The notes under the pieces were generated by a model. It worked only from the letters and a program-made list of their open reading frames with translations. It was not told the DNA's origin and did not search any database. A DNA stretch of 64,000 nucleotides from a virus: the IMG/VR virus record IMGVR_UViG_3300044677_000044, positions 33,019 through 97,018 of that record; one strand, 5' to 3'. The translations under genes were made by a program, and so were the position numbers. The number at the start of each line of letters is the position of its first letter. The first letter of the stretch is position 1. Shown piece after piece: positions 3,463-61,576 of this stretch.

Positions 3463-6400
3463 TCACTGCGCGTTGGCGGTACGCCGCACGGTCGTCAGCG
3501 CGCTGTCGACCTGGGTGTCGGCGACGCCGGCGACGTAGGCGTGCAGCGTCGGGCCGTCCTGGACGACCAGCGTCACCGCCTGCCCGGGCTGGAAGCCGCC
3601 TGCTGACGGGCCTGCAGCGAGGCGGGTGAGGGCGTTCGCCTGGTCGGTGGTGAACACCGGCTCCGGGGAGCCGGTGCCGTTGTAGGCCAGGTTCAGGCCG
3701 GGCTGGAGGTAGCCGCCCTTGTCGTACCAGTGGGGGGACCGGTCCGACCACTGCGACCAGGCATGCGACGGGGAGCCGTAGCGGCTGTGGATGTAGTCCA
3801 GCCCCCACGTGATCTGGGTGTGGGGGCTGGTTTTCCAGTCCGGGCCGGCGGCGGCCATCTTGGATGCGGGCAGCGACTGGGGGATGCCGTACGCGCCGCT
3901 GCTCTTGTTGAGGGCCTTGTAGTTCCAGCCCGATTCGCCGTTCCACAGCTTGATCAGGGCGGGCATCTCGTTGCCGCCCCAGCCCCACGCCTTGAGCATG
4001 TTGCGGGCCATGGCCTGTGCGGCTGCGGCGCCGGTGCCGTGAACACCGGCGTCCCCTCCCCCGCCGGCCTTCCCTCCGAGTCCGGTGAGGAGCTTCTTCA
4101 TGCCGCCGAGCGCGGCCACGGGCAGGGCCGCGGCCGCCTTCCCCCAGGGGCTGGACGTGAGCGGCTTGAGCTTGCCGAGAACGGGGTTGAGGATCTTCAC
4201 GAGGTTCCCGACCGGGTCGGCCAGGAAGTCCGCGGCGCTCTTGATGCCGCCCCAGGCCGCACCGGCGGCGTTCGACACGGCGCCGCCCGCGGCCTTCGCC
4301 GCGCCGCTGATGGTGCTGGTGATGTCGCCGAAGATGCCGCCGCCGGACAGGAGTTGCGCGCCGGCCTGCTGGAACAGGCCGAGCGCCCGGGTCCGGTACT
4401 TCGGGTCGGTGGGGATGACGTACTCGGGGTGACGGGGGTTGCCCTCGCCGACGATCGCGGTGGGCTTGCTGAACACCCCGGGCCGCATGGGCATCGGGCC
4501 GCCCTGCGCGAGAAGCGGGAGCTTCCCGAGCTTCGGCAGGCCGGGAATCCAGCCGCCGACCTTCTTCCACACGCTGAGGATCCCGTTGTTCCAGACGGTG
4601 TCGATCACGAAGTTGATCGGCTTCTTCGCCGCGTTCTCGATCTTGTCCCAGGTTTTGGCGATCCCGACACTCGTGCTGTCGAAGGCGCTGATGACCTTGT
4701 CGCTCAGGGTTCCCGCCCAGCCCGGGATGGTCTTCGTGAAGAACGTCCCGATCGGGTTGAGGACGTTCTTCTTCAGCCAGGACCAGCCGTCGGAGAAGAC
4801 GCTCTCGATGTTCCCCCAGTAGTGAGTGATCGCCCACACGGTCAGGCCGATCGGGCCGGTGATGATCCCGAGAACAAGCGGCCAGTTTCGGCTGATCCAT
4901 CCCATCAGCCACATGAAGGAGTTGGGGATCGTCTTCGTGAAAAACGGAATGAAGTCCTTCGTGAACCAGGTGACGACCGCCTGCACGGCGATCTGAATCC
5001 CGGCCCAGACTGCCTTCACCGAGTCACGGAACCACGCCCAGTGATTCCATGCCCAAAGGACAGCGGCGATCAGCAAGCCGATCGTGACGATGATGATCAG
5101 GATGATCGCGACGATCGGGTTCCCTGCGAAGGCTGCGTCCGCAGCCAGCGTGGCGGCAGTCCACCCGTCGGTGATCAGCGTGGTCAGCACCACAATCGCG
5201 TTGTAGACGAGGACCGCGCCGTTCCACGCCAGTTGCGCGAGCGTCGCCAGCTTCGTCACGACAAAGATCGCGTAGAGGAGTTGGATAACCCCCGGCGAAT
5301 TGGTGGCGATACTGCCGATGACATCGGCGACGGCTCCCAGTGCCTTCAGCACAGGGCCGGAAAGCGGAGCGGTCGCCTTCCCTACGTCTACAAAGGCGTC
5401 TCCGATCTTCCCGAGGGAGTCGGCGAGTTTCGGGGCCTCCTGCGACGCGTAGTCGAGGAAGTTCTCAAACTTCGGGCTGCCCTTGAGGTTCTTCCCGAAG
5501 TTCGCGAACTTTCCCGTGATCTTGTCCATCCGGGTGGAGATGGTGTTGATGTGCGGGAGGAAAGCGTCAATGATCCCCGCGGCCCCTACGAAGACGTTCC
5601 CGATCGCCGTGCCGACACCGACGATCGCCGGCTGGACCGATGACGCGAAGTCCTTCTTCAGGGACAGCCACCACGGGCTCTTGAAACCCTTACTGACCTT
5701 GTCCTGGAGGGTTTCGATGCCCTTCGCCGCACCGGTGACCAGAGGCGTCAACCCGGGCAGGCTGTTCTTCGCCCCGTCGATCCCGCGGGTGAAGATCGGC
5801 ATGATCTCCGGCTGCAAGTCCCGAGACCAGCCCTTGAACGCCGTCCGGAGATCGAGGAAAGCGTTGAAGGTGGCCCGCGAGCTCGGCGTCAGCTTGTCCA
5901 GGGCCTGCTGGTACTTCTGCGCCGCCGTGGCGCTCGCGTCCGAACCGCTCGCGGCCGACAGCGAGGCCGAAGCGACCTGCCGCTGCGCGCTCGCGATGGA
6001 GTCTGCGGCGTTCGCCTCAGCGTCGCTGACCTTCGCCTGCGCGTCCGCGATGGCCTGGGCGTTCTGCTGCTGTGTCCGTACCTGGGCTGCCTGCGCGTCC
6101 GACAGCGCCTGGGTGCGGTCGGTGACGTTGGCCTGGGCCTGGGCCACGGCGTCCTGGGCCTGCGTATAGGTCGCGCTGCCCTTGACGCCGGCCTTGTTCG
6201 CGGCCGTCGTCTGGTCCTGGAGACGCTTGGTCTGGATCTGCTGCTCGGACAGCGACTGAACGGCCGCGTCGTACGCCAGCTGATCCTGCGCAAGCTGCTC
6301 CGCGGTGACCTTCGCACCAGCGGCCTTGTCTGCGGTGAGCTGCTCCTGCGCGGACGTTACGGCGAGTGCCGCGCGCCGCTGCGCGAGGTCGGCGTCGACC

Positions 6401-18018: not shown

Positions 18019-19668
18019 TCATCTGAAGCCGTGTACGCGCCCGGTGCGGGCCTTCTTCTTCTGCTGTTTGGCCCACTCCGGGGACGCCAGCAGCGTCCGC
18101 CGGGCCATGTCCGCGAGCTGCGTTGCGGCGAACCCGTCGACCTTCTTCGGTGACTCCCGTGACTCCTTGCCGAACGACACGCCCCATCGGTTCGGGCGGC
18201 GCCGCGCGTTCCCGGCGTGCCGGTTGAGGATCGGGTGGTTTGTGTGCGGGACCTGGCCGTCGACGATCCCCTGCACCAGTGCCTCGGTGGCCTTGGTCAG
18301 TTCCTGCTGGTGGCCGCGCATGTCGTAGCCGATCAGCGCCTTCGGGGACGCCTTCGCCAGCAGCTTTTCGCGGTACCTCTCCGACCAGGTGTCAATGTAG
18401 GACTCCCACAGCTTCACGTCCGCGAAGAACGCCCTCACCTGGTACTGGCCGAAGGTGTTCTCGACCAGGTCGTCGACCTGCATCCGGTCGACCTCCCAGC
18501 CCTGGCCGCGCGGGCCCTCAGGGCGCTCCCAGATCCCGATCGGCTGCACGAGCCGGTCCACGAGCCGCATTGCGATCAGCGCGGTCGCGTCGTCGCTCTT
18601 GCCGCCGTCGAAGCCGAGGACGATGTCCTCGCCGGGCTGGAGCCGCATCTCCGAGGCGTTCTTCGCCCACTCCGCAGGGTCCAGGAGCGCGTCCTCCGCG
18701 GCGACCGGCTGGTTCAGCCAGTACCGGCGGGAGTCCGACGGCGCGGACTGCGGGTCCCAGATCTCCGCGACGATCCCGTCCAGATCCATCCACTCTGCGG
18801 CCGGCCCGTACGCCTCCCGCAGCCCCGCGAGGAGTTCGTCCCGGTCGGCCAGGTCGGTGCCGTCCTTGGCCTGCCGGTGGTCGAACAGCAGCCCAGCGGC
18901 CTCGGGGTCACGGATCCGGCCCTCACGAATCGCCTTGAAGTACGTGTGGGTGGCCTCAGCGACCGAGTCCTGACCGGGCTCGTACATGGTGCTGGTCTCC
19001 AGCGCCCACGGCTCGGCCTCCTTGCGCTTGCGGAGGTTCCGGCGCACCGTCTTGTGCATCTCCCGCAGTTCACGGGTGACGTATAGGTGCGTCTCGTCGA
19101 AGACCGCGAAGGTCTCCTTACCGCCGTCCTTCGCCGACGATGATGCGGTCGACGGGGTGATCTCACCACGCTGATGGTGCAGCACGATCCGGCTCGATGA
19201 CGCTGCGGACTTCCCGATGTCGATCCCCGGGAAGTCGTCGGCGGAGTTCTCTACGACGTACTCGAGCATCGTCGAGACGTTGTCGTAGGTGTTCCCGCTC
19301 TGCCCTTCCTCCGTGGCCAGGCATCGGATGAACGGCGACTTCACCGGTCGGCCGACCGGCTCACCGCTGGCGTCCCACCCGGCGAACCGCACCGGGAACA
19401 GCGCCTCGGAGCAGACCAGCATCCCCGCGAGCTCCGACTTCGCCCGGCCCTTCGACCTCGACAAGAACCCGCGCCGGTACACCCGGCGCCCGGTATCCGG
19501 GTTGAGCCGGTATGCCTTGACGACGAACGCGTAGAACTCGTCATCGAGCTCGATCGGCTCGCCGATGACGTCGCCCGGGCCGTGGCACAGGTACGCCTCG
19601 ATGTGCTCCACGATCTGAGGGCCCAGCGACGGGAACTCCCCCTCGTAGTCCGCACCACGCCAGGGCAT
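18019..19668 (-). CDS. terL: Terminase large subunit
   Basis: Walker A-like SRSKGRAKSE, Walker B FAVFDETH, nuclease motifs LGFDGGKSDD and KVDGFAA. Confidence 0.96.
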   Translation of the reverse strand: MPWRGADYEGEFPSLGPQIVEHIEAYLCHGPGDVIGEPIELDDEFYAFVVKAYRLNPDTGRRVYRRGFLSRSKGRAKSELAGMLVCSEALFPVRFAGWDASGEPVGRPVKSPFIRCLATEEGQSGNTYDNVSTMLEYVVENSADDFPGIDIGKSAASSSRIVLHHQRGEITPSTASSSAKDGGKETFAVFDETHLYVTRELREMHKTVRRNLRKRKEAEPWALETSTMYEPGQDSVAEATHTYFKAIREGRIRDPEAAGLLFDHRQAKDGTDLADRDELLAGLREAYGPAAEWMDLDGIVAEIWDPQSAPSDSRRYWLNQPVAAEDALLDPAEWAKNASEMRLQPGEDIVLGFDGGKSDDATALIAMRLVDRLVQPIGIWERPEGPRGQGWEVDRMQVDDLVENTFGQYQVRAFFADVKLWESYIDTWSERYREKLLAKASPKALIGYDMRGHQQELTKATEALVQGIVDGQVPHTNHPILNRHAGNARRRPNRWGVSFGKESRESPKKVDGFAATQLADMARRTLLASPEWAKQQKKKARTGRVHGFR

Positions 19669-19700
19669 CGCTCACCCCCGCCGCAGCACTCCCCGAGGCG

Positions 19701-20171
19701 TCAGCCTGTCGACTCCTGCTCCGCGGCCACGATCCGCAGGTTCTTGCGCCGCGCGGTCACCGACCGCGGTGTCTCTGCGGCAGGTTCAGCCCCGGTCCCT
19801 GGAAGGTTGACCTTCAGCTTCAACCGCATCCGATCCTCGGGGGTGGCCCCAAACTTCGCCGCCCGCAGCCGGACCTCGGACCCGAATTCCCATCTGCCCT
19901 TGGTCCAGAACACATGGTGCAGAAGTGCCGTATCGAGGAGGAAGTCCCAGTCGGTGTCCAGGAACGTGGCCGCCATCGGCGAGTGCCGCCACGTCTCCCA
20001 CCACCTGCGAGTCTGCGGGTGCCAGGTTTCATCGTCCGGGAGCACACCCTCCGGCAGATCAGGGCCGCGCACCTCATCGTCGACGTCGAGCGGGGTCATC
20101 TCCGCGTCCCGCGCTTTCGCATCTCGGGCCCGCGAGCGGGTGCCCTTGGGGGCCATGCCGTGGCCGGCCAT
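19701..20171 (-). CDS. terS: Terminase small subunit
   Basis: WHPQTRRWWETWRHSP...DWDFLLDTA...EVRLRAAKFGATPEDRMRL is a typical actinophage TerS; ATG 20171. Confidence 0.9.
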   Translation of the reverse strand: MAGHGMAPKGTRSRARDAKARDAEMTPLDVDDEVRGPDLPEGVLPDDETWHPQTRRWWETWRHSPMAATFLDTDWDFLLDTALLHHVFWTKGRWEFGSEVRLRAAKFGATPEDRMRLKLKVNLPGTGAEPAAETPRSVTARRKNLRIVAAEQESTG

Positions 20172-20184
20172 GAGCGCCACCCCC

Positions 20185-20787
20185 TCACAGCAGGTCGGCG
20201 ACCACCCCGGACAGGTCGGCGAGCTCGGACGGAGCATCCTCGAACGGCTCGCGGGTGACGGTGATGTAGCGGCCACGGTCGTACAGCTCGATCGCGGTCT
20301 CGCCGCGGCGGATCTTCCGGCCACGCTCCAGGGATCCGCGGCCCCAGATGTGCAGGCCGCTCCCCGAGGGGGACACCTCGATGTACGTGCGGGGCATGCG
20401 GTCGACGATCGCCCGGGCCCACGGCCGGAGTTCACCGTCGATCAGGGCGTGGTCGAGGTCGATGCACATCAGCCGGTCCCCGCCGGTCAGGACGAAGCCC
20501 ATGCCGACGCCGGCCGTTGAGCGGGCCGCGGTCCGGTACGTGCTCCACGTCGACGGGTCGGTCGAGGACGCCGGCCACACCTTGCCCGCGGCCGCGGTCA
20601 GCGGGGCCTTCCGTGCGGAGTACCGCACCCACTGGGCCCGCCTGGTCATCGCCGAAGGCACCGGGTCGGCCGCGCGCTGCCGGCTTCGGCAGGCCGCGGT
20701 GCGGCAGGCGCCGGAGCAGTACCGGGCGTTGTGGGCATGCCGGGCACTGAGGGGGCTCTCGCAGTGCTCGCAGCGGCGCGTCTTCAT
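20185..20787 (-). CDS. Stand-alone primase-polymerase (AEP, NrS-1-like) domain with N-terminal Zn finger
   Basis: CEHC...YCSGAC N-terminus; DPSTWST, GMGFVL, CIDLDH and YIEVSPSGSGLHIW AEP motifs. Confidence 0.8.
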   Translation of the reverse strand: MKTRRCEHCESPLSARHAHNARYCSGACRTAACRSRQRAADPVPSAMTRRAQWVRYSARKAPLTAAAGKVWPASSTDPSTWSTYRTAARSTAGVGMGFVLTGGDRLMCIDLDHALIDGELRPWARAIVDRMPRTYIEVSPSGSGLHIWGRGSLERGRKIRRGETAIELYDRGRYITVTREPFEDAPSELADLSGVVADLL

Positions 20788-20844
20788 GTTGGAGAGCCTA
20801 ACAGGCTGTGTAACGGCAATCCAGCATCTGACCTGCTGTTTCTC

Positions 20845-21211
20845 GATCGAGATTTCCAAGGCCGATCGGGGGTCGGCCGGCGGCCTGGCGAAGGCGCCCG
20901 ACATCAGCGCAGGTCAGACCATGATCATCAGATCCCCAGAGTCGCGCGCACCGCGAGGTGCTAACGTGCCCGATCCTCAGGATTTTTTGATCTTGGGGTG
21001 GCCCCCCAGGGTGATCTTGGCCCGTCGTTTGATCTTGACGAGAGGTTCAGACCACCCATGTTCAATCTTGGACCGGCCGGCCTGGACTCCCCGGAAGTCG
21101 ATCATGCTGGCGTCCGATTGGATCTTGCCAAGGCCGATCACGACCGACTCGCAAGCTCGTTCGATCAGCCGATCAGTGCCACATCACTACGATGATCACA
21201 GCGTGATGATC
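20845..21211. repeat. GATC/ATCTTG-rich intergenic region; probable cos/packaging site
   Basis: 15 GATC in 367 bp, five ATCTTG copies (20990, 21014, 21032, 21065, 21122), central TGGGG-TGGCC-CCCCA inverted repeat at 20994-21008; located between HNH and the terminase genes. Confidence 0.65.
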
Positions 21212-21240
21212 AAGCGCACGTGATGCCCACCAGCCTCGCC

Positions 21241-21549
21241 CTACGACAGCAGGCCCGGGTGCTGCTCGGCCGGCCGGGCGCGGGGTGGCCGTGCGTGTGC
21301 TGCCCTGGATGCTTCGCCTGCGGTCTTCTGGTTGTGGTGCCAGGAGCACAGGGCCCACAGGTTGGTGTCGTCGTCTCCGCCTCCAGCCACGGCGCCGACC
21401 TTGTGGTCCACGTCGGTGGCCGGCTCACCACATGTGCCGCCCGTGAGCATGGGCCACTGGCAGGCGTGGCCGTCGCGCTTGAGGATGCGCCCGCGGATGC
21501 GGTGCCAGCCCTTGGGCAGTGGCGTAGAACGGCGTCCCTGGCTCGGCAC
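21241..21549 (-). CDS. HNH endonuclease (packaging-associated)
   Basis: RILKRDGHACQW...ATDVDHKV...NLWALCSWHHNQKT. Confidence 0.93.
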   Translation of the reverse strand: MPSQGRRSTPLPKGWHRIRGRILKRDGHACQWPMLTGGTCGEPATDVDHKVGAVAGGGDDDTNLWALCSWHHNQKTAGEASRAAHARPPRARPAEQHPGLLS

Positions 21550-21552
21550 GGC

Positions 21553-21810
21553 CTACTGTCCTTCGGCCTGGTGGGCTGCTTGCTCGCCTGGTGCGTGGCC
21601 GGGACGGGCGCCGGTGGCGCGCTGGTGGAGGTTGGAGCAGAGGCCCTTGACGATGCCGGGCTGCACGTACTTGCCGAGCTCCGTGACGCAGCGGTCGAAG
21701 TCGCCCGGCACGCCCCATTCGATCTTGGCTGCGCCGGGTCCGTGTGCCCAATACTCCATGAGGTGTTCGGTGTCGGCGGGGTGGCGCTGTGCGCCGCCGG
21801 TGTCGGCCAT
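21553..21810 (-). CDS. Conserved small actinophage protein
   Basis: YWAHGPGAAKIEWGVPGDFDRCVTELGKY...GLCSNLH motif; good RBS. Confidence 0.65.
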   Translation of the reverse strand: MADTGGAQRHPADTEHLMEYWAHGPGAAKIEWGVPGDFDRCVTELGKYVQPGIVKGLCSNLHQRATGARPGHAPGEQAAHQAEGQ

Positions 21811-21814
21811 GGGG

Positions 21815-22024
21815 TCACCTCGGCTCGGGCGGTGGCGGTTCCTCGGGGAGGTCGTCGGTGCGGATGAGGGAGCGGATGCGGCTGGTGGGGAAGGCTGCGG
21901 CGATGCCGTCGGGGTCGATGAAGGTGGCCCAGCCGTCGGTGAGTTTGAGGGTGAGGGCGTTGTCGTGGATGGTGATGGGCGCGCGTTCGCCGTCGATGGC
22001 GAGGGTGTAGCTGATCACGGGCAC
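21815..22024 (-). CDS. Hypothetical protein
   Basis: 69 aa, coupled to its neighbours, GC3-biased codons. Confidence 0.6.
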   Translation of the reverse strand: MPVISYTLAIDGERAPITIHDNALTLKLTDGWATFIDPDGIAAAFPTSRIRSLIRTDDLPEEPPPPEPR

Positions 22025-22539
22025 TCGGGGGCGGGCTCGCCCGCGGCCTGTGTGGCACGGCTGCGGAGTTGTTCGGAGGTGAGGCCGACGGAGGGCTGGC
22101 TGCGGATGGTGCCGCCGGCGGCGTACGCGGGAGGCTCCCGGTCGGCAGCCAGAGCGCCGAGGGCGGCACCGTCGTTGTACTTGCGGACCTCCCGGTCGGC
22201 GTAGGTCCTGGCGATCCGTTGGGCGCCGGCCAGAGCAGCGCCGAGGCTCTCATCGAAGCCGGTGAGGTCGGGCTCGACCTTGAGGTGTACGACGCCGGCC
22301 GTGACGCTGTCGCCTTCTCCGGTGAGCTCGGTGGCGTAGGCGGGCTCGTTGGCGGGGATGTCGACGGTCTCCTCGAAGGCGAGGATGACGCGAGCTCCCA
22401 TGGCGTCACGGACCGAGCTGTCCAGGCCGAGGCTCGTGCGGAGAGCATCGACGTCCTGCACCTGGTCGATGATGACGGCGAACGGCGATCGCTCGTCGCT
22501 GGCACCTTCGGGGAGTTCGAGGATCTGAATGCGGGCCAT
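22015..22539 (-). CDS. Hypothetical protein
   Basis: 174 aa, tightly packed in the late operon. Confidence 0.65.
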   Translation of the reverse strand: MARIQILELPEGASDERSPFAVIIDQVQDVDALRTSLGLDSSVRDAMGARVILAFEETVDIPANEPAYATELTGEGDSVTAGVVHLKVEPDLTGFDESLGAALAGAQRIARTYADREVRKYNDGAALGALAADREPPAYAAGGTIRSQPSVGLTSEQLRSRATQAAGEPAPECP

Positions 22540-33753: not shown

Positions 33754-33954
33754 TCAGGTCTCCAGGTCGTTGTCGGGGCGGGTGGTGGGCGGTTCGGGCC
33801 GTCGGCCGAGGCCGAAGGGGGTGCGGAGTCCGGCGGCGCGTAAGGCGCGGCGTAAGGGCGAGTTGCGGATCATGCGGTCGGGGTCGAAGCGGATGTATCC
33901 GGGCCGCTCGTGGTCGTCGTGGTCGTCCGGGGGCGGCGGTGTGTGCTGGGGCAT
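33754..33954 (-). CDS. Small hypothetical protein with two TTA codons
   Basis: 66 aa; in-frame TTA at 33853-33855 and 33841-33843 (SP-L-RRA-L-RA). Confidence 0.55.
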   Translation of the reverse strand: MPQHTPPPPDDHDDHERPGYIRFDPDRMIRNSPLRRALRAAGLRTPFGLGRRPEPPTTRPDNDLET

Positions 33955-45432: not shown

Positions 45433-45756
45433 ATGACCGCCCACGAACCTGACCAGCCTGTATTCGTGACCTTCGAGACCGGCGCCCAACTCCTCGTCGA
45501 ACTTGACGTCGACCCGGAGGCGACCGCCGCAGCCCTCCGTTACACCGCTCGGACGGACGTCGACCACTGGCCTTTCGGCGAGGGCAAACCTCACCCGTAC
45601 GTCATGGTCGGCAACGCGCGCACGATGGAGACCGGGGTCTTCCTGGACTACTTCCGTAAGCACCCACGGGGCGGACGCGGACGAGATAAGAAACCCCGCC
45701 GGGCTCGGCAGCAGGCTCAGGACGAGCCAGTTCAGAATGAGGAGCGACTGGCATGA
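45433..45756 (+). CDS. Small conserved DNA-binding-like protein
   Basis: VTFETGAQLL...RYTART...WPFGE...RTM...VFL...RGGRGR; paralogous to the C-terminus of the next gene. Confidence 0.65.
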   Translation: MTAHEPDQPVFVTFETGAQLLVELDVDPEATAAALRYTARTDVDHWPFGEGKPHPYVMVGNARTMETGVFLDYFRKHPRGGRGRDKKPRRARQQAQDEPVQNEERLA

Positions 45757-46340
45757 CTGATTACATCTATGTCATCGGAACCATGGACGGAGAGATCGTC
45801 AAGATCGGGATCTCGAACTCGGTCAGCAGGCGCCTCCGTCAGATCCAGTTCCTGTCCCCCGTTCCTGTCAAGATCTTCTGGTCCGGGCCGGGGAACCGCG
45901 ACTTGGAGCAGGCGCTCCATCGCAAGTTCGTCGGCCGCCGCCTGCACGGCGAGTGGTTCTCCTTCAAGGATGAAGACGCCGTCGCCGCAGTCGTTGACGC
46001 AGTTCAGTCCCTTCCTGCCTCGCTGAGACAGCAGGTGCCAGATTCCAAGCGCACCTTCGTGCCTGCGGCTGTGGCCAAGACGGATACCCACGTGACCTTC
46101 GTCTCTGGCGCGGCTCTGCTGGCCAGCCTGGGTCTTGTGGACAAGATCACCCCGGACGGAGTGCGGTACTTAGCCCGCACATCGCCTGATTGGCCATTCG
46201 GCGAGCAGGAAGGCATGGTCCCGTACCTCGTAGTCGGCGCGAGCCGAACGATGGACAAGGAAGTCTTCCTTGCCTTCTTCAGGTCGGGTCCTAAGCGTGG
46301 CGGCCGCGGCCGAATTCCAAGTCAGCGAGTGTCCCCATGA
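45753..46340 (+). CDS. GIY-YIG (T5orf172/MUG113-like) nuclease fused to a paralog of the upstream protein; contains a TTA codon
   Basis: YIYVIG...VKIGISNSVSRRLRQIQ...LEQALHRKF...GEWF; TTA in frame at 46170-46172. Confidence 0.8.
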   Translation: MTDYIYVIGTMDGEIVKIGISNSVSRRLRQIQFLSPVPVKIFWSGPGNRDLEQALHRKFVGRRLHGEWFSFKDEDAVAAVVDAVQSLPASLRQQVPDSKRTFVPAAVAKTDTHVTFVSGAALLASLGLVDKITPDGVRYLARTSPDWPFGEQEGMVPYLVVGASRTMDKEVFLAFFRSGPKRGGRGRIPSQRVSP

Positions 46341-46563: not shown

Positions 46564-47925
46564 ATGAGCGACGCTGAGAACGTTGTACCCGTCGAGCTGT
46601 ACGGCCCCGACGATGGCGGCTGGTACACCACCCGTGTGCACGACTGGATCGGCCTGTGCCCGGAACTCCGTGATGCCGAGGTCCGGGGCTATCTGATCCT
46701 GCGGTCCCTGGTGATCGAGAAGTACAAGAACCCCGTACGGAAGCTCGCCCTGGACGACCTCTGCGCTCTCATCCCCGGGCCCACGAAGGGACAGCCGAGC
46801 AGCCTCACGCGCGTACGTGGAATCCTCGCCGGCCTGTCCGCCGTGGGCCTGGTGACTACTCCGGAGGGCCTGCCCGTCAAGACGTCATCCCGCCCTGCAG
46901 CTGCAGGGCGGCCCATCCGACTCCGCATCAACGACATGCCCACGAAGGGCTACTCGGGGTGGCGGAACACCGAGGACAAGCTGTCATCCATCTCCCGGGA
47001 GGACGCCGAGATGTCGGCGGGTCGGATTTCCGACCCGGACCAGAACGAGGGCGGTGCAGGTCAGGGCGGGGGGCGGTTTACCGACCCGCCGGGTCGGAAA
47101 TCCGACCCCGGGGGTTGGATTTCCGACCCGGAACCGCCACCTGACCTGCCGGAACCCGAAGTCCCTCTGGTACCTACTCTTGGTATGACCGGTGGAGATG
47201 CGCCTTCGGCGCGTAGCGTCGTGGACGGCCGGAGGCCTTCTGACGGTAGTAGCGCGCGCGAGGGTGAAGGCGGCTCCGCCGCGTCCAGCAACGACAGCCC
47301 CTCCTCCACTCAGGAAGACGGCCCAGCGCCGCGCCGCGCCGGGCGGAAGAGCGCAGCAGCACGGCACACCCGGGATCAGTTGCAGCAGGCGCAGCGGGTT
47401 CTTCCGTACTTCCCTGCGGAGTTGGGCGTGAGCCTGGTGCCGGCGCTGACGCAGGCGATCCTTGATGCGCTCGCGGGCGACTGCCCGGGGGCGGATCGCA
47501 CCGCGGCCCAGCTCGGGGTGCGGATTGAGCGTCGGTGGGGCCAGCACGGTTACGCGGCGAAGCACTACGCCGGGACACTGGACAGCCCGGTGGGCGCGGC
47601 GATCGGCATGGTCCGGCCGCTGAAGGCCGGCGACCGGTACGGGTGTGCGAACCCCAGGTGCGAGGACGGCGCCGACGTCGACACCGGCGAGGCGTGCACA
47701 GTGTGCCCGGAGCGGCTCGCCGCGCGACGGGCCGCACGCCGCCAGGCGGCCGCTGTGCCGCCTCCGCGGCCGCCTGCGGCATCCACACCCGCCAGGGCGC
47801 CCGGCGGGTTCCGGGAATGCCCGTGCGGGGATCCGCTCGCGAGGGCCAGCACCGACACCCTGTGCCAGCGGTGCCGAGCGCGCGCCGACTCCCCTGCGGG
47901 GCAGGACGTCCTGGCGCCGTTCTGA
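46564..47925 (+). CDS. Replication initiator protein (wHTH N-terminus, Zn-binding C-terminus)
   Basis: N-terminal wHTH-like region, low-complexity middle carrying iterons, C-terminal CANPRC/CPC..CQRC; lambda O-like organisation. Confidence 0.75.
   Translation: MSDAENVVPVELYGPDDGGWYTTRVHDWIGLCPELRDAEVRGYLILRSLVIEKYKNPVRKLALDDLCALIPGPTKGQPSSLTRVRGILAGLSAVGLVTTPEGLPVKTSSRPAAAGRPIRLRINDMPTKGYSGWRNTEDKLSSISREDAEMSAGRISDPDQNEGGAGQGGGRFTDPPGRKSDPGGWISDPEPPPDLPEPEVPLVPTLGMTGGDAPSARSVVDGRRPSDGSSAREGEGGSAASSNDSPSSTQEDGPAPRRAGRKSAAARHTRDQLQQAQRVLPYFPAELGVSLVPALTQAILDALAGDCPGADRTAAQLGVRIERRWGQHGYAAKHYAGTLDSPVGAAIGMVRPLKAGDRYGCANPRCEDGADVDTGEACTVCPERLAARRAARRQAAAVPPPRPPAASTPARAPGGFRECPCGDPLARASTDTLCQRCRARADSPAGQDVLAPF
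47019..47129. repeat. Four 18-bp palindromic iterons GGGTCGG-W4-CCGACCC (putative replication origin)
   Basis: 47019-47036, 47070-47087, 47091-47108, 47112-47129; the last three at exact 21-bp periodicity. Confidence 0.85.
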
Positions 47926-49594: not shown

Positions 49595-49680
49595 GCGCTG
49601 ATCCTGCCACCCCGGGGCCGGGTCAACGGCGGTGTGCGGGCGCCCTGTTGCGGGGTGGGGCGGGCACACTCGGCACAGTA

Positions 49681-49730
49681 AAATGATTGCGCATGTAGTC
49701 ATTTAACGGTAGGGTGGGGGCCACACCAAG
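49681..49730 (+). promoter_or_regulatory. Early promoter/operator copy 1
   Basis: TTGCGC (49687) - N17 - TAGGGT (49710); AAATGA-N12-TCATTT inverted repeat over -35; 47/50 identical to 51853-51902. Confidence 0.8.
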
Positions 49731-49751: not shown

Positions 49752-50048
49752 GTGCCCAGTGCCGCGACCATCACCACCCCGCAGACCACCACCCTCCCGG
49801 TCATCGACCTGGGCACCCACAACCGGGACTTCACCACTGGCCGGTTCGTCCCCACCTACACCCTGCGCTACGCCACCGAGCGGCACGGCATCGAGACCGC
49901 CATCGAGCGGACCATCCCCGCCTCCGGGATCGAGCGCATCGGCGCGGTCACCGCGCGCTGCGCCGACCGCGGCACCGTCTGGAACGTCGAGGTCATCGAC
50001 AAGGACGGCCACGACGTCACGTTCGACTTCGCGTGCTTCCAGTCCTGA
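49752..50048 (+). CDS. Hypothetical early protein
   Basis: 98 aa, GGAG RBS, immediately after promoter copy 1. Confidence 0.7.
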   Translation: MPSAATITTPQTTTLPVIDLGTHNRDFTTGRFVPTYTLRYATERHGIETAIERTIPASGIERIGAVTARCADRGTVWNVEVIDKDGHDVTFDFACFQS

Positions 50049-50072
50049 CCCGGCCCCATCACCTCCCCCACT

Positions 50073-50104
50073 GGCCCGGCCGGCGCCCCTCCGCCGGCCG
50101 GGCC
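50073..50104 (+). terminator. 13-bp perfect GC stem-loop
   Basis: GGCCCGGCCGGCG-CCCCTC-CGCCGGCCGGGCC. Confidence 0.6.
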
Positions 50105-50128
50105 GCCCCATCTCCTGGAGGACAGCCC

Positions 50129-50527
50129 GTGATCCGCGAGGACCGCTTCCTGATCAGCCGCAAGCCCTACGCCGTTGACCTGTCCAGCCTGCGCGGCGAG
50201 CTGAAGGCATCCCCGCAAGGACGACGCCCCACCTACTACGACGGCCGTATCGACGCCGTGTGGTTCCGCCGCAAGCAGGGCGTCACCGCGGCGTACATCG
50301 GCACCCTGTGGGACCTCCAGGACGCCGAGCCCGCCGACGGCGCCGCGTTCCTCACCGCCCACACCGACGGCCGCTACGGCGGTGACTGCGACGGCCGGTG
50401 GGACGGCACCAGCTACTGGGGCAACGTGCCGCTCACCGTGCAGGAGCAGCACCTGGCGATCCTGCGGCCGATGCTCGCCAACTACCCGGACCTGCCGCCC
50501 CTTTACGACGGCTGGTGGCGGTTCTGA
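50129..50527 (+). CDS. Hypothetical early protein
   Basis: GTG 50129 with GGAGG RBS; aromatic-rich. Confidence 0.7.
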   Translation: MIREDRFLISRKPYAVDLSSLRGELKASPQGRRPTYYDGRIDAVWFRRKQGVTAAYIGTLWDLQDAEPADGAAFLTAHTDGRYGGDCDGRWDGTSYWGNVPLTVQEQHLAILRPMLANYPDLPPLYDGWWRF

Positions 50528-50608
50528 CCGCCCTGGCCAGCCCGCCGGCCCAGGTGCGCAGTCGCACCCCGGGCAATGAACCGACCGCCTCCTGAAAGGG
50601 AAAGCCGC

Positions 50609-50998
50609 ATGACCACCCAGACCGCACCCCGCACACGCCGCGGCGACCTCGCCGTGATCGAACGCCTCAACGTCACCCACTCCACGACCGGCCGCACCGA
50701 GACCACCGAGTACACCGTGATGGTCGTGTGCTCCGTCACCCGTGACGGCCACGCCAAGGCCGTCAAGGACGAGCGCTACCCGAGCGACGGGCACAACGTC
50801 GCCTACCCGCAGCCCCTCGCAGAGATGCTCGGACTCCAGCGCTTCCTGATCGTCCCCAAAGACAAGATCGACGTGACTGCAGCCGTCGCCGCAGCCCGCG
50901 CCCACGTCTACCCGGGCAGCGCCACCCCGCGCCCCTACGACTCCCTCGACGAAGTGCGTGCCGCGCTCGCCCCGCACCGAATTGGGGCAGGCAAGTGA
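50609..50998 (+). CDS. Hypothetical early protein
   Basis: ATG 50609; coupled to the next gene. Confidence 0.65.
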   Translation: MTTQTAPRTRRGDLAVIERLNVTHSTTGRTETTEYTVMVVCSVTRDGHAKAVKDERYPSDGHNVAYPQPLAEMLGLQRFLIVPKDKIDVTAAVAAARAHVYPGSATPRPYDSLDEVRAALAPHRIGAGK

Positions 50999-51735
50999 CC
51001 ATCGACCTGCCCGTCGCGCACGGCTGGACCATGCGCAGCCTCGACCAGGTGACCCGCGCCGCCGTCAACAACGACCGCTCCATGGCCTGCGATGCCGACA
51101 CCCGCTACAACACCGCCTGGTCCGCGATCGCCGAGCACCTGTGCGCCGCCGAAGAACCGCCCACCTGGCACGACCTGTTCACCACTGGCTGGCAGGCGAT
51201 CTACCGCGAAGTGCGGGAGATGCGCGAGGTGTTCGGCTTCAAGGACCGTGACGGCACCACGGAGACCGCGTCCGCGCCGCGGTACGTCCGGTACTGGTGG
51301 CAGCCCCCGAACCGTCCCGAGGACGGCCTCCTGGAGCGCATCGCCGTCGGGCAGATCATCGACACCATCCCCGAGATCTACCGGGATGCGGTCGTGGCCC
51401 TCGCCGTCCACGGCGACTACCAGGCCGCCGCTGAGTCGCTGGGGCTGAAGTACACGGCGTTCACGGTCCGCATGTCCGTCGCCCGCAAGCAGTTCCGCGC
51501 CGCGTGGTACGCGCCCGAGACCGCGCCGCGTATCAAGGGCACGGACCGGCGTATCGGCTCCCGCAACACGCCGCTGGCCACGCACTGCAAGGGCGGCAAG
51601 GGTCCGCACGAGATGACGCCGGAGAACACCTACCGCCGGCCCAGTTCCAAGGCCGGCCACCGCGGGGAGCGCGTCTGCCGGGCATGCGAAGCCGAGCGCA
51701 GCAAGGCCCGTGTGGCGGCCAAGCAAGTCGCCTGA
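50995..51735 (+). CDS. Sigma-70 region-4-like HTH protein with C-terminal Zn finger
   Basis: IPEIYRDAVVALAVHGDYQAAAESLGLKYTAFTVRMSVARKQF; THCKG..HEMTPENTY...RVCRAC. Confidence 0.65.
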   Translation: MTIDLPVAHGWTMRSLDQVTRAAVNNDRSMACDADTRYNTAWSAIAEHLCAAEEPPTWHDLFTTGWQAIYREVREMREVFGFKDRDGTTETASAPRYVRYWWQPPNRPEDGLLERIAVGQIIDTIPEIYRDAVVALAVHGDYQAAAESLGLKYTAFTVRMSVARKQFRAAWYAPETAPRIKGTDRRIGSRNTPLATHCKGGKGPHEMTPENTYRRPSSKAGHRGERVCRACEAERSKARVAAKQVA

Positions 51736-51744
51736 CCCAGGGCC

Positions 51745-51827
51745 GCCGGGGTGGCGCAACGGCGACGCAGCCGCCTTAAAAGCGGTCGCCCCGCGAGGGG
51801 TTGCGGGTTCGAATCCCGCTCCCGGCA
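51745..51827 (+). tRNA. trnL-UAA: tRNA-Leu, anticodon UAA (bldA-type, reads TTA)
   Basis: Acceptor GCCGGGG/TCCCGGC, D-arm GCG..CGC with GG, anticodon stem GCCGC/GCGGT, loop CT-TAA-AA (51777-51779), long variable arm CCCC-GCGA-GGGG, T-arm GCGGG-TTCGAAT-CCCGC, discriminator A, no encoded CCA. Confidence 0.92.
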
Positions 51828-51852
51828 CAGATGGAGCCCGCCAAGATGGGTT

Positions 51853-51902
51853 AAATGATTGCGCATGTAGTCATTTAACGGTAGAGTGGGGACTACACCA
51901 AG
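51853..51902 (+). promoter_or_regulatory. Early promoter/operator copy 2
   Basis: TTGCGC (51859) - N17 - TAGAGT (51882); TTAAATGA..TCATTTAA 8-bp inverted repeat. Confidence 0.8.
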
Positions 51903-53544: not shown

Positions 53545-54282
53545 ATGCCCCAGGAACACGAAGAGCAGCCCGGCGCCAGCCCGGTCGAGGAGCGGTGTGT
53601 GCTGTGCACCCACCCGTTCAGCGCGCACGGCACGATGCCCGACGGAACCCGGCCCTGCCGCAGCGTCGGCCACCCGGACGGGCTGAACTGCGAGGAGTGC
53701 AAGCGCCTCACCTCGCCCGAGTACGTGCAGCAGATCATGGCGATGCGGGAGGAGCACTCCCCCGCGTTCGCCGCCGCATGGGCGGCCTACAGCACGACCC
53801 TGGACCACGTCCGCCACGAGATCGGCGCCGGCTGGCAGGCGTTCTTCACCGACGTGCACCAGGCCGCGCTTGCCTCCGGCCTGATCGAGTACACCGCGCC
53901 GCGGCGGCCGCCGGTCGTCGTGATCTGCGGCAGCACCCGGTTCATGGCCGAGATGGCCGAGGCGAACCTGCGGCTGACCGCCGGCGCCGGCGGCCGCCAG
54001 CCCGCAATCGTCCTCGCCCCGGCCTGCAACATGAAGCAGCCCCACGAGCTGTGGGCCGACCCCGCCGATGCCGAACGCCTGAAGGCCGTGTTGGACGAGA
54101 TCCACCGGGCGAAGATCCGCATGGCCGACTGGGTCCTGGTCGTTAACCCAGGCGGCTACATCGGAGACAGCACCGGGGGCGAGATCGAGTACGCGCGCGA
54201 GTTGGGCAAGCCCGTCCGGTTCACGGACCCGCCGGCTCGCCCCGAGCACGCCGCGACCGTGCAGGACGGGGTACAGCTGTGA
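53545..54282 (+). CDS. Zn-finger plus DUF4406/nucleoside deoxyribosyltransferase-like Rossmannoid domain protein
   Basis: VVICGSTRF...HRAKIRMADWVLVVNPGGYIGDSTGGEIEYARELGKPV. Confidence 0.65.
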   Translation: MPQEHEEQPGASPVEERCVLCTHPFSAHGTMPDGTRPCRSVGHPDGLNCEECKRLTSPEYVQQIMAMREEHSPAFAAAWAAYSTTLDHVRHEIGAGWQAFFTDVHQAALASGLIEYTAPRRPPVVVICGSTRFMAEMAEANLRLTAGAGGRQPAIVLAPACNMKQPHELWADPADAERLKAVLDEIHRAKIRMADWVLVVNPGGYIGDSTGGEIEYARELGKPVRFTDPPARPEHAATVQDGVQL

Positions 54283-54851
54283 ACGCCCCCACGATGACCG
54301 AGACGCACCGGGGCCTGGCGCCCGACTGGACCACCCCGACCGACCACCACGGCCTGCAGGGACTGTGCCGGGCGCCGGAGTGCCGGGCATCCGGGGCGAT
54401 CGCTCTGGCCCTGACTATTCAGCAGCCCTGGGCGGACGCGATCGCCCACGGAGACAAGCGCACCGAGAACCGGACGTGGCCGATTCCCCCGCAGCACATG
54501 GGCGCCCGGATCCTGCTCCACGCCGGGAAGGCCGTCGACCGCCGCGCCGTGCTCGTCCGCGGCCGGGACTGGCCCGACCACCGCGGCGCGGTCATCGGGA
54601 CCGCCCGCCTGGACTCCTGCCACCAGGCCACCACCAGCGGTCTGTTGTGCTGCGCGCCGTGGGGGCACCCCAGCGGGGCCTTCGCTCCCACCTGGCACTG
54701 GCGCCTCACCGAAGTCCGCGCCCTGGAACTGCCCATCGAGGCCAAGGGCTTCCAGAAGCTGTGGCGGCCGCCGGCCGGCCTGGTGCGGGCGGTGCGTTCC
54801 CAGTTCGCCGGTTCGCCGTTCGTCATCCTGGAGGAGGAAGACCTGTGCTGA
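54279..54851 (+). CDS. ASCH domain protein
   Basis: ALTIQQPWADAIAHGDKRTENRTW...ILLHAGK...GAVIGTARL...KGFQKLW. Confidence 0.9.
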   Translation: MNAPTMTETHRGLAPDWTTPTDHHGLQGLCRAPECRASGAIALALTIQQPWADAIAHGDKRTENRTWPIPPQHMGARILLHAGKAVDRRAVLVRGRDWPDHRGAVIGTARLDSCHQATTSGLLCCAPWGHPSGAFAPTWHWRLTEVRALELPIEAKGFQKLWRPPAGLVRAVRSQFAGSPFVILEEEDLC

Positions 54852-55426
54852 CCGCCATGAACCGGGCGCTGCCCCGGCCTGTTGTACACGTCATGTGCGG
54901 GTTGCCCGGGAGCGGAAAATCCACGGCCGCGTACCAGCTGCTCGCCGAGTCCCAGTGCCGGATGCGGCGGGTCAGCATGGACGACCTGCGCGCGATGCTC
55001 GACCAGCCCGGGCCCACCACGGAACGACCCTGGTCCCGGCTGCACGAACAGACCGCGCTGGCCGTCCACGACCATGCGGTCCGCGAGGCCGTCCTCGGCG
55101 GCTGGGATGTCGTGGTCGACAACTGCAACGTCACCCCGTACATGCCCGAACGGCTGAAGGACGCCGTCGGGGCGCTCGCGCAGTTCGTCGTCCACGACCT
55201 GACCGACGTGCCCGTTCAGGAGTGCATCCGCCGCGACGCGGAGCGGCCCTGGCCGCTCAGTGTCGACGCCGACGTGATCCTCGGGCTCGCCCGGCAGCAC
55301 ACCGAAGCCCGCGCGACGGGCTGGCAGCTGACCGACGAATGGATGAACGACCGCCACACCGACCCGGCCGAAGGCGCCCGCTACGCCCGCCAGCACCTCA
55401 CCCAGCCCGTTGGGAGCGACGTATGA
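54845..55426 (+). CDS. AAA_33 / polynucleotide kinase-like P-loop kinase
   Basis: MCGLPGSGKST, RVSMDDLR, VVVDNCN, ECIRRDAER. Confidence 0.88.
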   Translation: MLTAMNRALPRPVVHVMCGLPGSGKSTAAYQLLAESQCRMRRVSMDDLRAMLDQPGPTTERPWSRLHEQTALAVHDHAVREAVLGGWDVVVDNCNVTPYMPERLKDAVGALAQFVVHDLTDVPVQECIRRDAERPWPLSVDADVILGLARQHTEARATGWQLTDEWMNDRHTDPAEGARYARQHLTQPVGSDV

Positions 55427-59937: not shown

Positions 59938-60617
59938 TGGGCCGCCCCGACCTCGATGTTGCGCCGCGCGCCGCAGCAGGCCGGGCCCTCGTACCCGGCC
60001 TGCCCGACGACGTGATCGCCCTTCCGCACTGGCGGCAGCAGAGCACGACCCTGCTCGTCACCCTCGACCGCTCGGAGCACGCCCGCCGCGGCGACACGCA
60101 GACCGGGCCGGTGCCGTACGACTCGATGGAACTCCTCACGCTGATGCTGCGCCTTCCCCACGGCGAGCAGGTGCCGCTCGCGGAGTTCGACCAGCGCGAC
60201 CGGCGCCGACTGCGCGGCGCCCGCAACAGCGGCGCCGTCAGCGAAGCCCACACCGACCGTGGCGCGGCCGCCGTGGTCCGCCACGCCCTGCGGCCGCTGC
60301 GCGTCCATCTCGCGGTGGTCTCCGGCCCCCCGATCGCTGGCCTGGAGCAGGCCGGCTCCTTCGCCCCGTTCTGCGCCCGCGCGGTCCTCCTGCGCAAACA
60401 CCCCGGCGAGGACTACCTGTTCGAGGCGTCCTTCTACGGCGTCGGCATCGCGATCCCCGGGCCCGATCCCCGGCAGGACGCCCCGGTGTCGCTGCTCGCC
60501 CCGCGCCCGTGGGTGCCCAAGCGCCACACCCCCGCGGGCTGGAACTTCCAGGAGACCGCCTACAAGCAACTGCTCACCCACCCTGACCTCATCCCCGTAC
60601 CGGACGGAGTCTCATGA
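59937..60617 (+). CDS. Hypothetical protein
   Basis: 226 aa, TGATG coupling; GSFAPFCARAVLL...EASFYGVGI. Confidence 0.7.
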   Translation: MGRPDLDVAPRAAAGRALVPGLPDDVIALPHWRQQSTTLLVTLDRSEHARRGDTQTGPVPYDSMELLTLMLRLPHGEQVPLAEFDQRDRRRLRGARNSGAVSEAHTDRGAAAVVRHALRPLRVHLAVVSGPPIAGLEQAGSFAPFCARAVLLRKHPGEDYLFEASFYGVGIAIPGPDPRQDAPVSLLAPRPWVPKRHTPAGWNFQETAYKQLLTHPDLIPVPDGVS

Positions 60618-61576
60618 CCAGCACCGCACCCGGCTGCGTGTTCTGCGCGATCGTCGCCGGACAAGCTCCCGCCACCGTCGTCCGGGAGTGGGACGACGCC
60701 GTCGCGATCCGGCCCCGCGGCGGCGTCAACGACAGGCACGTCCTCGTGCTGCCCCGCGTGCACGTCGAGGACGCCGGCACCGACCCGGACGTGACCGCAG
60801 CGGTCCACCGCCGCGCCGGCGAACTCCTCGCCGAGCACCCCGCCGGGAACCTCATCACCAGCAAGGGCCGTGACGCCACACAGACGGTGTTCCACCTCCA
60901 CGTTCACGTAGTGCCCCGCCAGGCCGGTGATGGGCTTCCGCTCCCGTGGACGCCCCAGCAGGAAGCCGCCACGGCCGCCCTGCAAGCCACGGCCGCCTCC
61001 ACCCCCGACCGGGCCACCACTTCCTCCAACGAGATCCCTCTGCCTCGGCTCGCCGGCATCCGGCTGCAACTGGTGTACGCACGCGAACCCATCCCGTTCA
61101 GCGACCAGATGGTTTTCCTCGCCGGGCCCACCCCGGTCGCAGGCGGCGACGTCCCCTCGTGGCGGCCGGCCGCGATCGAGGCCCTGGCGCAGCAGTGGGC
61201 CGGCCCCGGCCCACTGACCGTCCTCACTCCGGAATCCCGCGGCGGCGTACGCGCCGAGCACTACGACGACCAGGTCGGCTGGGAGACCGACGCCCGCGCA
61301 GCGGCGGACGTGGTCCTCTACTGGATTCCCCGCGACCTCCGCGCCCTCCCCGGCATGACCACGAACGTGGAATTCGGGCTGGATGTGGGCACCGGCAAGG
61401 CGGTCCTCGGTTGCCCGCCCGACTGCCCCAATCCAGAACGCAACCGCTACCTGATCTACGTCGCTCGCCGCCACGGCGTGCCGGTCCGCGAGAGGCTCCC
61501 GGACACCGTGGCCGCCGCCCTGGCCCTCATCCCCCCCACCACCAGCGACATCCCCGGATCGGACGGAGCAGCATGA
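60614..61576 (+). CDS. HIT hydrolase fused to a nucleoside 2-deoxyribosyltransferase-like domain
   Basis: CVFCAIVAG...HVLVLPRVH...QTVFHLHVHVVP (HIT triad) then VFLAGP...SWR...LTPE...QVGWE...YWIPR...TTNVEFG. Confidence 0.85.
   Translation: MTSTAPGCVFCAIVAGQAPATVVREWDDAVAIRPRGGVNDRHVLVLPRVHVEDAGTDPDVTAAVHRRAGELLAEHPAGNLITSKGRDATQTVFHLHVHVVPRQAGDGLPLPWTPQQEAATAALQATAASTPDRATTSSNEIPLPRLAGIRLQLVYAREPIPFSDQMVFLAGPTPVAGGDVPSWRPAAIEALAQQWAGPGPLTVLTPESRGGVRAEHYDDQVGWETDARAAADVVLYWIPRDLRALPGMTTNVEFGLDVGTGKAVLGCPPDCPNPERNRYLIYVARRHGVPVRERLPDTVAAALALIPPTTSDIPGSDGAA

Follow-up and report, generated by a model that had tools for sequence, protein, structure and literature searches.

A tRNA-Leu(UAA) gene distinct from bldA, located behind a sigma-like gene on a putative Streptomyces phage-plasmid

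The viral DNA analysed here carries a complete tRNA-Leu(UAA) gene which, as judged from its alignment with host sequences, is independent of the host developmental gene bldA. UUA is a very rare leucine codon, and the gene probably encodes a functional leucine tRNA for this codon, which probably decodes UUG as well. Since this tRNA is unrelated to bldA and is placed behind a sigma-like gene, the element probably reads UUA without the tRNA of its host. The explanation favoured in our study, to which we give about an even chance of being right, is that UUA is decoded independently of bldA during early infection.

The element and its host

The window, i.e. the whole stretch of 64,000 nucleotides that was analysed, corresponds to bases 33019-97018 of a 98,334-bp IMG/VR record with a CheckV completeness of 91%. 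The minus strand encodes the tape measure, major capsid, portal and large terminase proteins. The left 33 kb of the record, outside the window, encodes a lysin, a tail-fibre-like beta-helix protein and a tyrosine recombinase, and ParB-like, WhiB-like, PIN-domain and DNA-methylase genes are also found there. At least 12 Streptomyces genomes contain genes with 79-86% identity to the terminase, and hence the host is taken to be Streptomyces. An FtsK/TraB-like gene (a weak Pfam match) together with the ParB-like gene suggests that the element is a Streptomyces phage-plasmid of about 98 kb. A megablast search of 44-56 kb against GenBank phages gave no match, and no close match to the tRNA was found among isolated phages.

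The sole tyrosine recombinase gene of the record (record positions 21239-22339, minus strand) lies outside the window at a distance of about 63 kb from the tRNA, and no serine recombinase or serine integrase was found in the record. It adjoins a gene for a 604-aa PIN_4-domain protein (record positions 19373-21187, plus strand), which is likewise outside the window. Within the window, three copies of the 21-nt unit GGGTCGGATTTCCGACCCGGA at 47019-47132 form perfect 20-nt inverted repeats. These repeats sit inside a 453-aa open reading frame (46564-47925) without a family match, and they may serve as an origin or as binding sites.

Structure of the tRNA gene

51745..51827 (+): tRNA-Leu(UAA), type II, discriminator A73, CCA not encoded (ARAGORN, Rfam RF00005)

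The earlier note on this DNA had described a complete type II cloverleaf with a UAA anticodon and an A discriminator, and the computational searches agree with that description. ARAGORN called a tRNA-Leu(taa) at 51745-51828 (+) of the window, and the Rfam family RF00005 matched 51745-51827 with 51.5 bits (cut-off 29, E 3.8e-8), which places the gene in the tRNA family. The acceptor stem consists of 7 bp including one G-U pair, the D stem of 3 bp and the anticodon stem of 5 bp with the loop CUUAAAA, and the variable arm has 4 bp and a 4-nt loop. The sequence and the ARAGORN drawing together contain all the features of a bacterial type II tRNA-Leu, namely the long variable arm, U8-A14, the D-loop GG, the T loop TTCGAAT and A73. 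The same tRNA sequence, without any difference, is present in contigs from soil-metagenome runs of two independent studies; these are DNA runs, and a search for RNA runs returned none.

For the part at 51792-51827, a second tRNA with the CUUAAAA loop and the common T arm was observed on another contig of the same soil sample (run X2, record 12), so several tRNA(UAA) variants coexist in that community. The sole other ARAGORN call, a tRNA-Lys(ctt) at 4209-4290, was rejected as a false positive; it falls inside the tape-measure gene, has mismatches in the acceptor stem and gives no Rfam match.

The sigma-like neighbour and the promoter-operators

The features that surround the tRNA are as follows.

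49678..49730 (+): promoter-operator copy 1 (P1), TTGCGC-N17-TAGGGT with palindrome AAATGA-N12-TCATTT (repeat family D1)
49752..50998 (+): three small early open reading frames at 49752-50048, 50129-50527 and 50609-50998 (GC3-based gene calls)
50995..51735 (+): ECF-sigma-like protein of 246 aa with a Cys/His-rich C-terminal tail, stop codon 9 nt before the tRNA (AlphaFold, Foldseek)
51850..51902 (+): promoter-operator copy 2 (P2), -10 box TAGAGT, 22 nt past the tRNA (repeat analysis)

The region is therefore arranged in the order P1, three small open reading frames (without a Pfam or PHROG match), the 246-aa protein, a gap of 9 nt, the tRNA, a gap of 22 nt and P2. P1 and P2 are copies of a 53-nt element with 92% identity, which confirms the duplicated promoter that had been noticed directly after the tRNA, and a 26-mer within the element occurs twice in the window against zero expected by chance. 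The promoter is of the Streptomyces type, TTGCGC-N17-TAG(G/A)GT, and is overlapped by the palindrome. Two further copies are found in the record at 6447 and 19020, both on the minus strand; the four copies make up a four-operator regulon, and the set looks like a repressor-controlled early regulon. The unit with the tRNA at its end probably starts at P1, and P2 heads the second early operon, which is long (51922 to about 62451). As neither a promoter nor a terminator of its own could be detected near the tRNA, its co-transcription with the first unit is inferred, and it would be the last gene of this operator-controlled early unit.

The gene just before the tRNA had been called sigma-like from its sequence, and structural prediction supports this reading. 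An AlphaFold model of the 246-aa protein, built on 39 homologues, reached a pLDDT of 80.8; its Foldseek matches in the PDB are almost exclusively ECF sigma factors, and its sigma-4 domain superposes at an rmsd of 1.5-1.6 A. The Pfam match to Sigma70_r4_2 reaches just E 0.046 (13.8 bits, cut-off 25.7), a profile search against the PDB gave E 0.05-0.2, and homologues of the protein are named 'sigma24 family' by some sources. Matches to PHROG HNH families of phages span residues 191-244. On the basis of the model, the protein is predicted to fold like an ECF sigma factor and is called sigma-like here.

The second early operon encodes, at 54279-55426 and 60614-61576, an ASCH-domain protein, a polynucleotide-kinase-like P-loop kinase (phrog_505) and a fusion of HIT and nucleoside-deoxyribosyltransferase-like domains. 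An RNA ligase was looked for beside the kinase and none was found.

Relation to bldA and other host tRNAs

A pattern search of five Streptomyces genomes located a single bldA gene per genome, and these copies are nearly identical to one another. The phage tRNA is only 62-68% identical to them, far from the near-identity of a bldA orthologue. In the same five genomes, the phage tRNA shares 73-75% identity with the host tRNA-Leu(CAA), the T arm being the same and the acceptor stem almost so, and 72% with the host tRNA-Leu(UAG). Descent of the phage tRNA from tRNA-Leu(CAA) is plausible in view of this resemblance.

The earlier note had stated that the tRNA differs substantially from bldA and does not look like a duplicate of an att site. 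Both statements hold. The tRNA is complete and divergent, the sole recombinase gene is 63 kb away, and phage genes are present on both sides. The combination of near-identity to bldA with an adjacent integrase, which that note had named as speaking against its reading, was looked for and not found.

TTA codons of the element and of its relatives

TTA codons were counted in gene calls of our own, which are based on GC3. The record contains three secure TTA codons (four with the one at 49681) in about 28,700 codons, or 1.4 per 10,000, and they fall in two or three accessory genes of about 123.

33754..33954 (-): 66-aa orphan open reading frame, TTA at codons 34 and 38, GC3 0.88, just downstream of the FtsK/TraB-like gene
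45753..46340 (+): T5orf172/MUG113-domain gene, TTA at codon 140, in a lower-GC accessory island

These two genes account for the roughly three in-frame TTA codons that had been counted by eye, and the tiny demand that the first reading ascribed to the phage is confirmed. The fourth TTA, at 49681, sits in the operator repeat and is probably non-coding. For the 66-aa gene, no homologues were found in relatives, plasmids or IMG/VR, and none were found in relatives for the T5orf172-domain gene.

Streptomyces host genomes carry TTA in 1.7-3.4% of their genes (PMC6662830), and the share of TTA-bearing genes in the phage equals that of the host. Among ten related records, carriers of the tRNA have 0.7-1.8 TTA per 10,000 codons and non-carriers 0.8-3.0, with one non-carrier at 7.8. 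Carriers thus use TTA no more than non-carriers, and codon compensation is not supported by this comparison. One relative with a terminase 76% identical (G021; IMGVR_UViG_3300049171_000040, L118-L122) lacks a tRNA(UAA) and contains 22 in-frame TTA codons distributed over 21 genes, which is the opposite of what codon compensation predicts. A codon-compensating role, for which TTA use should be raised, receives no support, since it is raised neither against the host nor against the non-carriers; taken together, the comparative data argue against simple codon compensation.

A lineage of UAA tRNAs on mobile elements

An exact search of IMG/VR with the anticodon arm returned 11 loci on 10 contigs with such tRNAs, and BLAST returned five Streptomyces plasmids with UAA tRNAs. 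Four of the five carry the lineage of the phage tRNA, one of these four having a bldA-like copy in addition, and the fifth has a bldA-like copy only. The plasmid copies have evidently been annotated by RefSeq. Members of the lineage include the tRNAs of a 93-kb plasmid of S. platensis NBC_00734 (NZ_CP108975.1; 88% identical to the window copy) and of locus L153 (87%). The plasmid and IMG/VR tRNAs share with the window copy the anticodon arm GCCGC-CUUAAAA-GCGG, the T arm and the acceptor pattern, and they often adjoin a homologue of the sigma-like protein.

L002, L003, L176: tRNA(UAA) immediately downstream of a sigma-like homologue
L136, L157, L169, L172: tRNA(UAA) within 0.6 kb of a sigma-like homologue
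L004, L179: tRNA(UAA) 1.7-2 kb downstream of a sigma-like homologue

When loci were collected through the sigma-like protein alone, five of the nine were found to have a tRNA(UAA). Most members of the lineage are 75-78 nt long and lack the variable arm, which is kept only in the window, L153 and NZ_CP108975.1; armless genes were recorded at L002, L137, L139, L150, L151, L154, L157, L162, L169, L172, L173, L174 and L176. The discriminator of the armless forms varies between A, U and G. This variability, together with the missing arm, fits a Streptomyces LeuRS that is reported to ignore both A73 and the variable arm. At L176 the anticodon loop is the host-like CUUAAAC.

In an alignment of 15 lineage sequences (11 IMG/VR loci and four plasmids), 96% of the stem positions pair and 10 of the 20 stem pairs show changes on both sides, values that were reached by none of 500 shuffles, and control alignments with slid partners gave 36-46% pairing. 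The compensatory changes and the pairing indicate that the lineage has been kept as a working tRNA. The comparison shows that selection is keeping a tRNA with a UAA anticodon beside a sigma-like gene. The lineage is rare in isolates, as the arm-plus-T-loop pattern was found in one of the 401 genomes of Streptomyces species that were searched. The tRNA has a patchy distribution over the phages with a common terminase, and the nucleotide homology of L002 to the window ends exactly at the 3' end of the tRNA.

Some further observations were made on these elements. The position that follows the sigma-like gene is taken, in a sister lineage, by a class I tRNA whose anticodon is UAA at two loci and UAU (Ile, for the rare codon AUA) at one; the UAA form has an Ile-like body, and at a further distance of 1.4 kb there is a second tRNA, a tRNA-Ile(UAU). 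The two tRNAs of each locus are placed as follows.

L004: 6439-6513 and 7848-7921
L179: 7691-7764 and 9059-9131
L180: 7724-7799 and 9139-9212

In two plasmids of about 90 kb, NZ_CP108975.1 and NZ_CP134214.1, the tRNA(UAA) is followed at about 1.5 kb by a gene with a NERD domain (L136:7556-8236 and L137:1791-2432, respectively); these genes contain one and two TTA codons, respectively, at differing positions. Diverged type II tRNA(UAA) genes resembling bldA were noted on the large Streptomyces plasmids NZ_CP134606.1 and NZ_CP086103.1 (L174, L175). One plasmid of this group has both a bldA-like and an armless copy, and the copy of another directly follows an autoregulator-receptor gene of the ScbR family. 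No description of a phage- or plasmid-borne UUA reader in Streptomyces was found in the open-access literature, which does not prove that there is none.

Proposed role and alternative explanations

If UUA is decoded independently of bldA, the following course can be proposed. Host RNA polymerase would transcribe the tRNA with the first early unit once the operator is free, RNase P and 3' processing would release it from the transcript, a host enzyme would add CCA, and the host LeuRS would charge it with leucine. The most likely benefit is that translation of the element would then be freed from bldA, the single UUA reader of the host. Self-sufficiency in UUA decoding, when and where infection occurs, is the most economical mechanism. 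Such a tRNA would prevent expression from stalling at the few TTA codons that the element has in its changeable accessory genes. As a mosaic element swaps its accessory genes, one small gene would insure it against any TTA codon.

Phage infection takes place in young hyphae, in which mature bldA tRNA is reportedly scarce; its late accumulation was reported by Leskiw et al. 1993, a point which is debated, as is whether bldA limits translation in such hyphae. Young mycelium is much more susceptible to phages than mature mycelium (Luthe et al. 2023, PMC10117723). As regards charging, S. coelicolor LeuRS accepts type I and armless tRNA-Leu, the loss of variable-arm base pairs of tRNA-Leu(UAA) is harmless, and A73 is no identity element (Fan et al. 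2019, PMC6614811). The same paper cites earlier work in which tRNA-Leu(CAA) given a UAA anticodon could replace bldA. In view of these results, it is plausible that the armed forms as well as the armless ones are charged with leucine.

A different role would be the reprogramming of the host, in which the tRNA allows TTA-gated host genes (adpA, pathway regulators) to be translated outside their normal schedule and shifts development, sporulation or antibiotics to the advantage of the element. Work on bldA has established that UUA gates these genes (PMC2000904), tRNAs that read UUA occur repeatedly on Streptomyces plasmids, in one case directly after a ScbR-family regulator gene, and the tRNA is paired with an ECF-sigma-like gene. 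However, the operator-controlled early unit implies that the tRNA is probably not expressed in the carrier state, few isolates have the lineage (one in 401 species genomes), and help given to host TTA genes could help host defences too; we consider this role unlikely. Its more specific form, in which the ECF-like sigma factor and the tRNA(UAA) together act as a cassette for mobile bypass of bldA, switching on TTA-gated regulators such as adpA and altering development or antibiotics in infected or carrier mycelium, appears improbable to us. The tRNA could also be a passenger at a module boundary, travelling with the sigma-like cassette or serving as a recombination joint with little fitness effect of its own. 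The end of the L002 homology exactly at the 3' end of the tRNA, the patchiness among terminase-sharing phages and the presence in five of nine loci found through the sigma-like protein alone are in line with this. The compensatory stem changes and the UAA anticodon conserved across divergent bodies point instead to purifying selection on a working tRNA, and a passenger status is quite unlikely.

Defence and capture have also to be weighed. In a counter-defence role, the phage tRNA would substitute for a host tRNA that an anti-phage nuclease cuts or depletes, or would act as its decoy. This is weakened by the fact that, to our knowledge, no nuclease specific for tRNA-Leu(UAA) has been described. 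Moreover, destroying a tRNA needed for three phage codons would hardly stop the phage, no RNA ligase was found, and the loop of the relative L176 is host-like. The tRNAs of T5 and other phages do evade tRNA-targeting defences (PMC10264068, PMC11555353), loop position 38 is A in the phage tRNA against C in bldA, and the gene for the polynucleotide-kinase-like protein (phrog_505, E 1.6e-20) is found 3 kb downstream, but we judge counter-defence improbable. Many actinophages integrate into tRNA genes, and the gene might on that ground be a captured host bldA or a remnant of an attP/attB tRNA. The 62-68% identity to bldA, the complete cloverleaf, the position of the tyrosine recombinase about 63 kb away, the lack of a serine recombinase in the record and the phage genes on both sides leave this origin a negligible probability. 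We therefore retain bldA-independent decoding of UUA as the preferred explanation.

Significance and comparison with known systems

UUA is the one Streptomyces codon whose decoding is treated as a developmental checkpoint. A phage and plasmid lineage of UUA-reading tRNAs which is under selection and independent of bldA would make this checkpoint idea testable from a new side. It raises the question whether foreign DNA must bring its own UUA reader, and what effect such a reader has on the TTA-gated genes of the host. The armless tRNA-Leu(UAA) forms are natural variants that fit the unusual charging of type I tRNA-Leu by Streptomyces LeuRS. A tRNA of this kind could also serve as a compact tool to express TTA-containing gene clusters early or in bldA-poor strains.

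Phage tRNAs are common. Like those of T4, T5 and the mycobacteriophages, the present one is a single tRNA gene on a tailed phage, corresponds to a scarce host decoder and lies among early genes. It departs from the models proposed for them in that codon use is not raised, so that the classic signature of compensation is missing, and in that we know of no nuclease partner. The nearest host tRNA is the S. coelicolor tRNA-Leu(CAA), from which the phage tRNA differs in the anticodon and the anticodon stem. With chromosomal bldA it shares the anticodon, the type II shape and A37 in the loop, and presumably also the codon read and the amino acid carried. On the other hand, it differs from bldA in the acceptor stem, the D arm, the anticodon stem, the T arm and loop position 38 (A instead of C) and, unlike the chromosomal gene, it is encoded on a mobile element, inside what appears to be an early operon.
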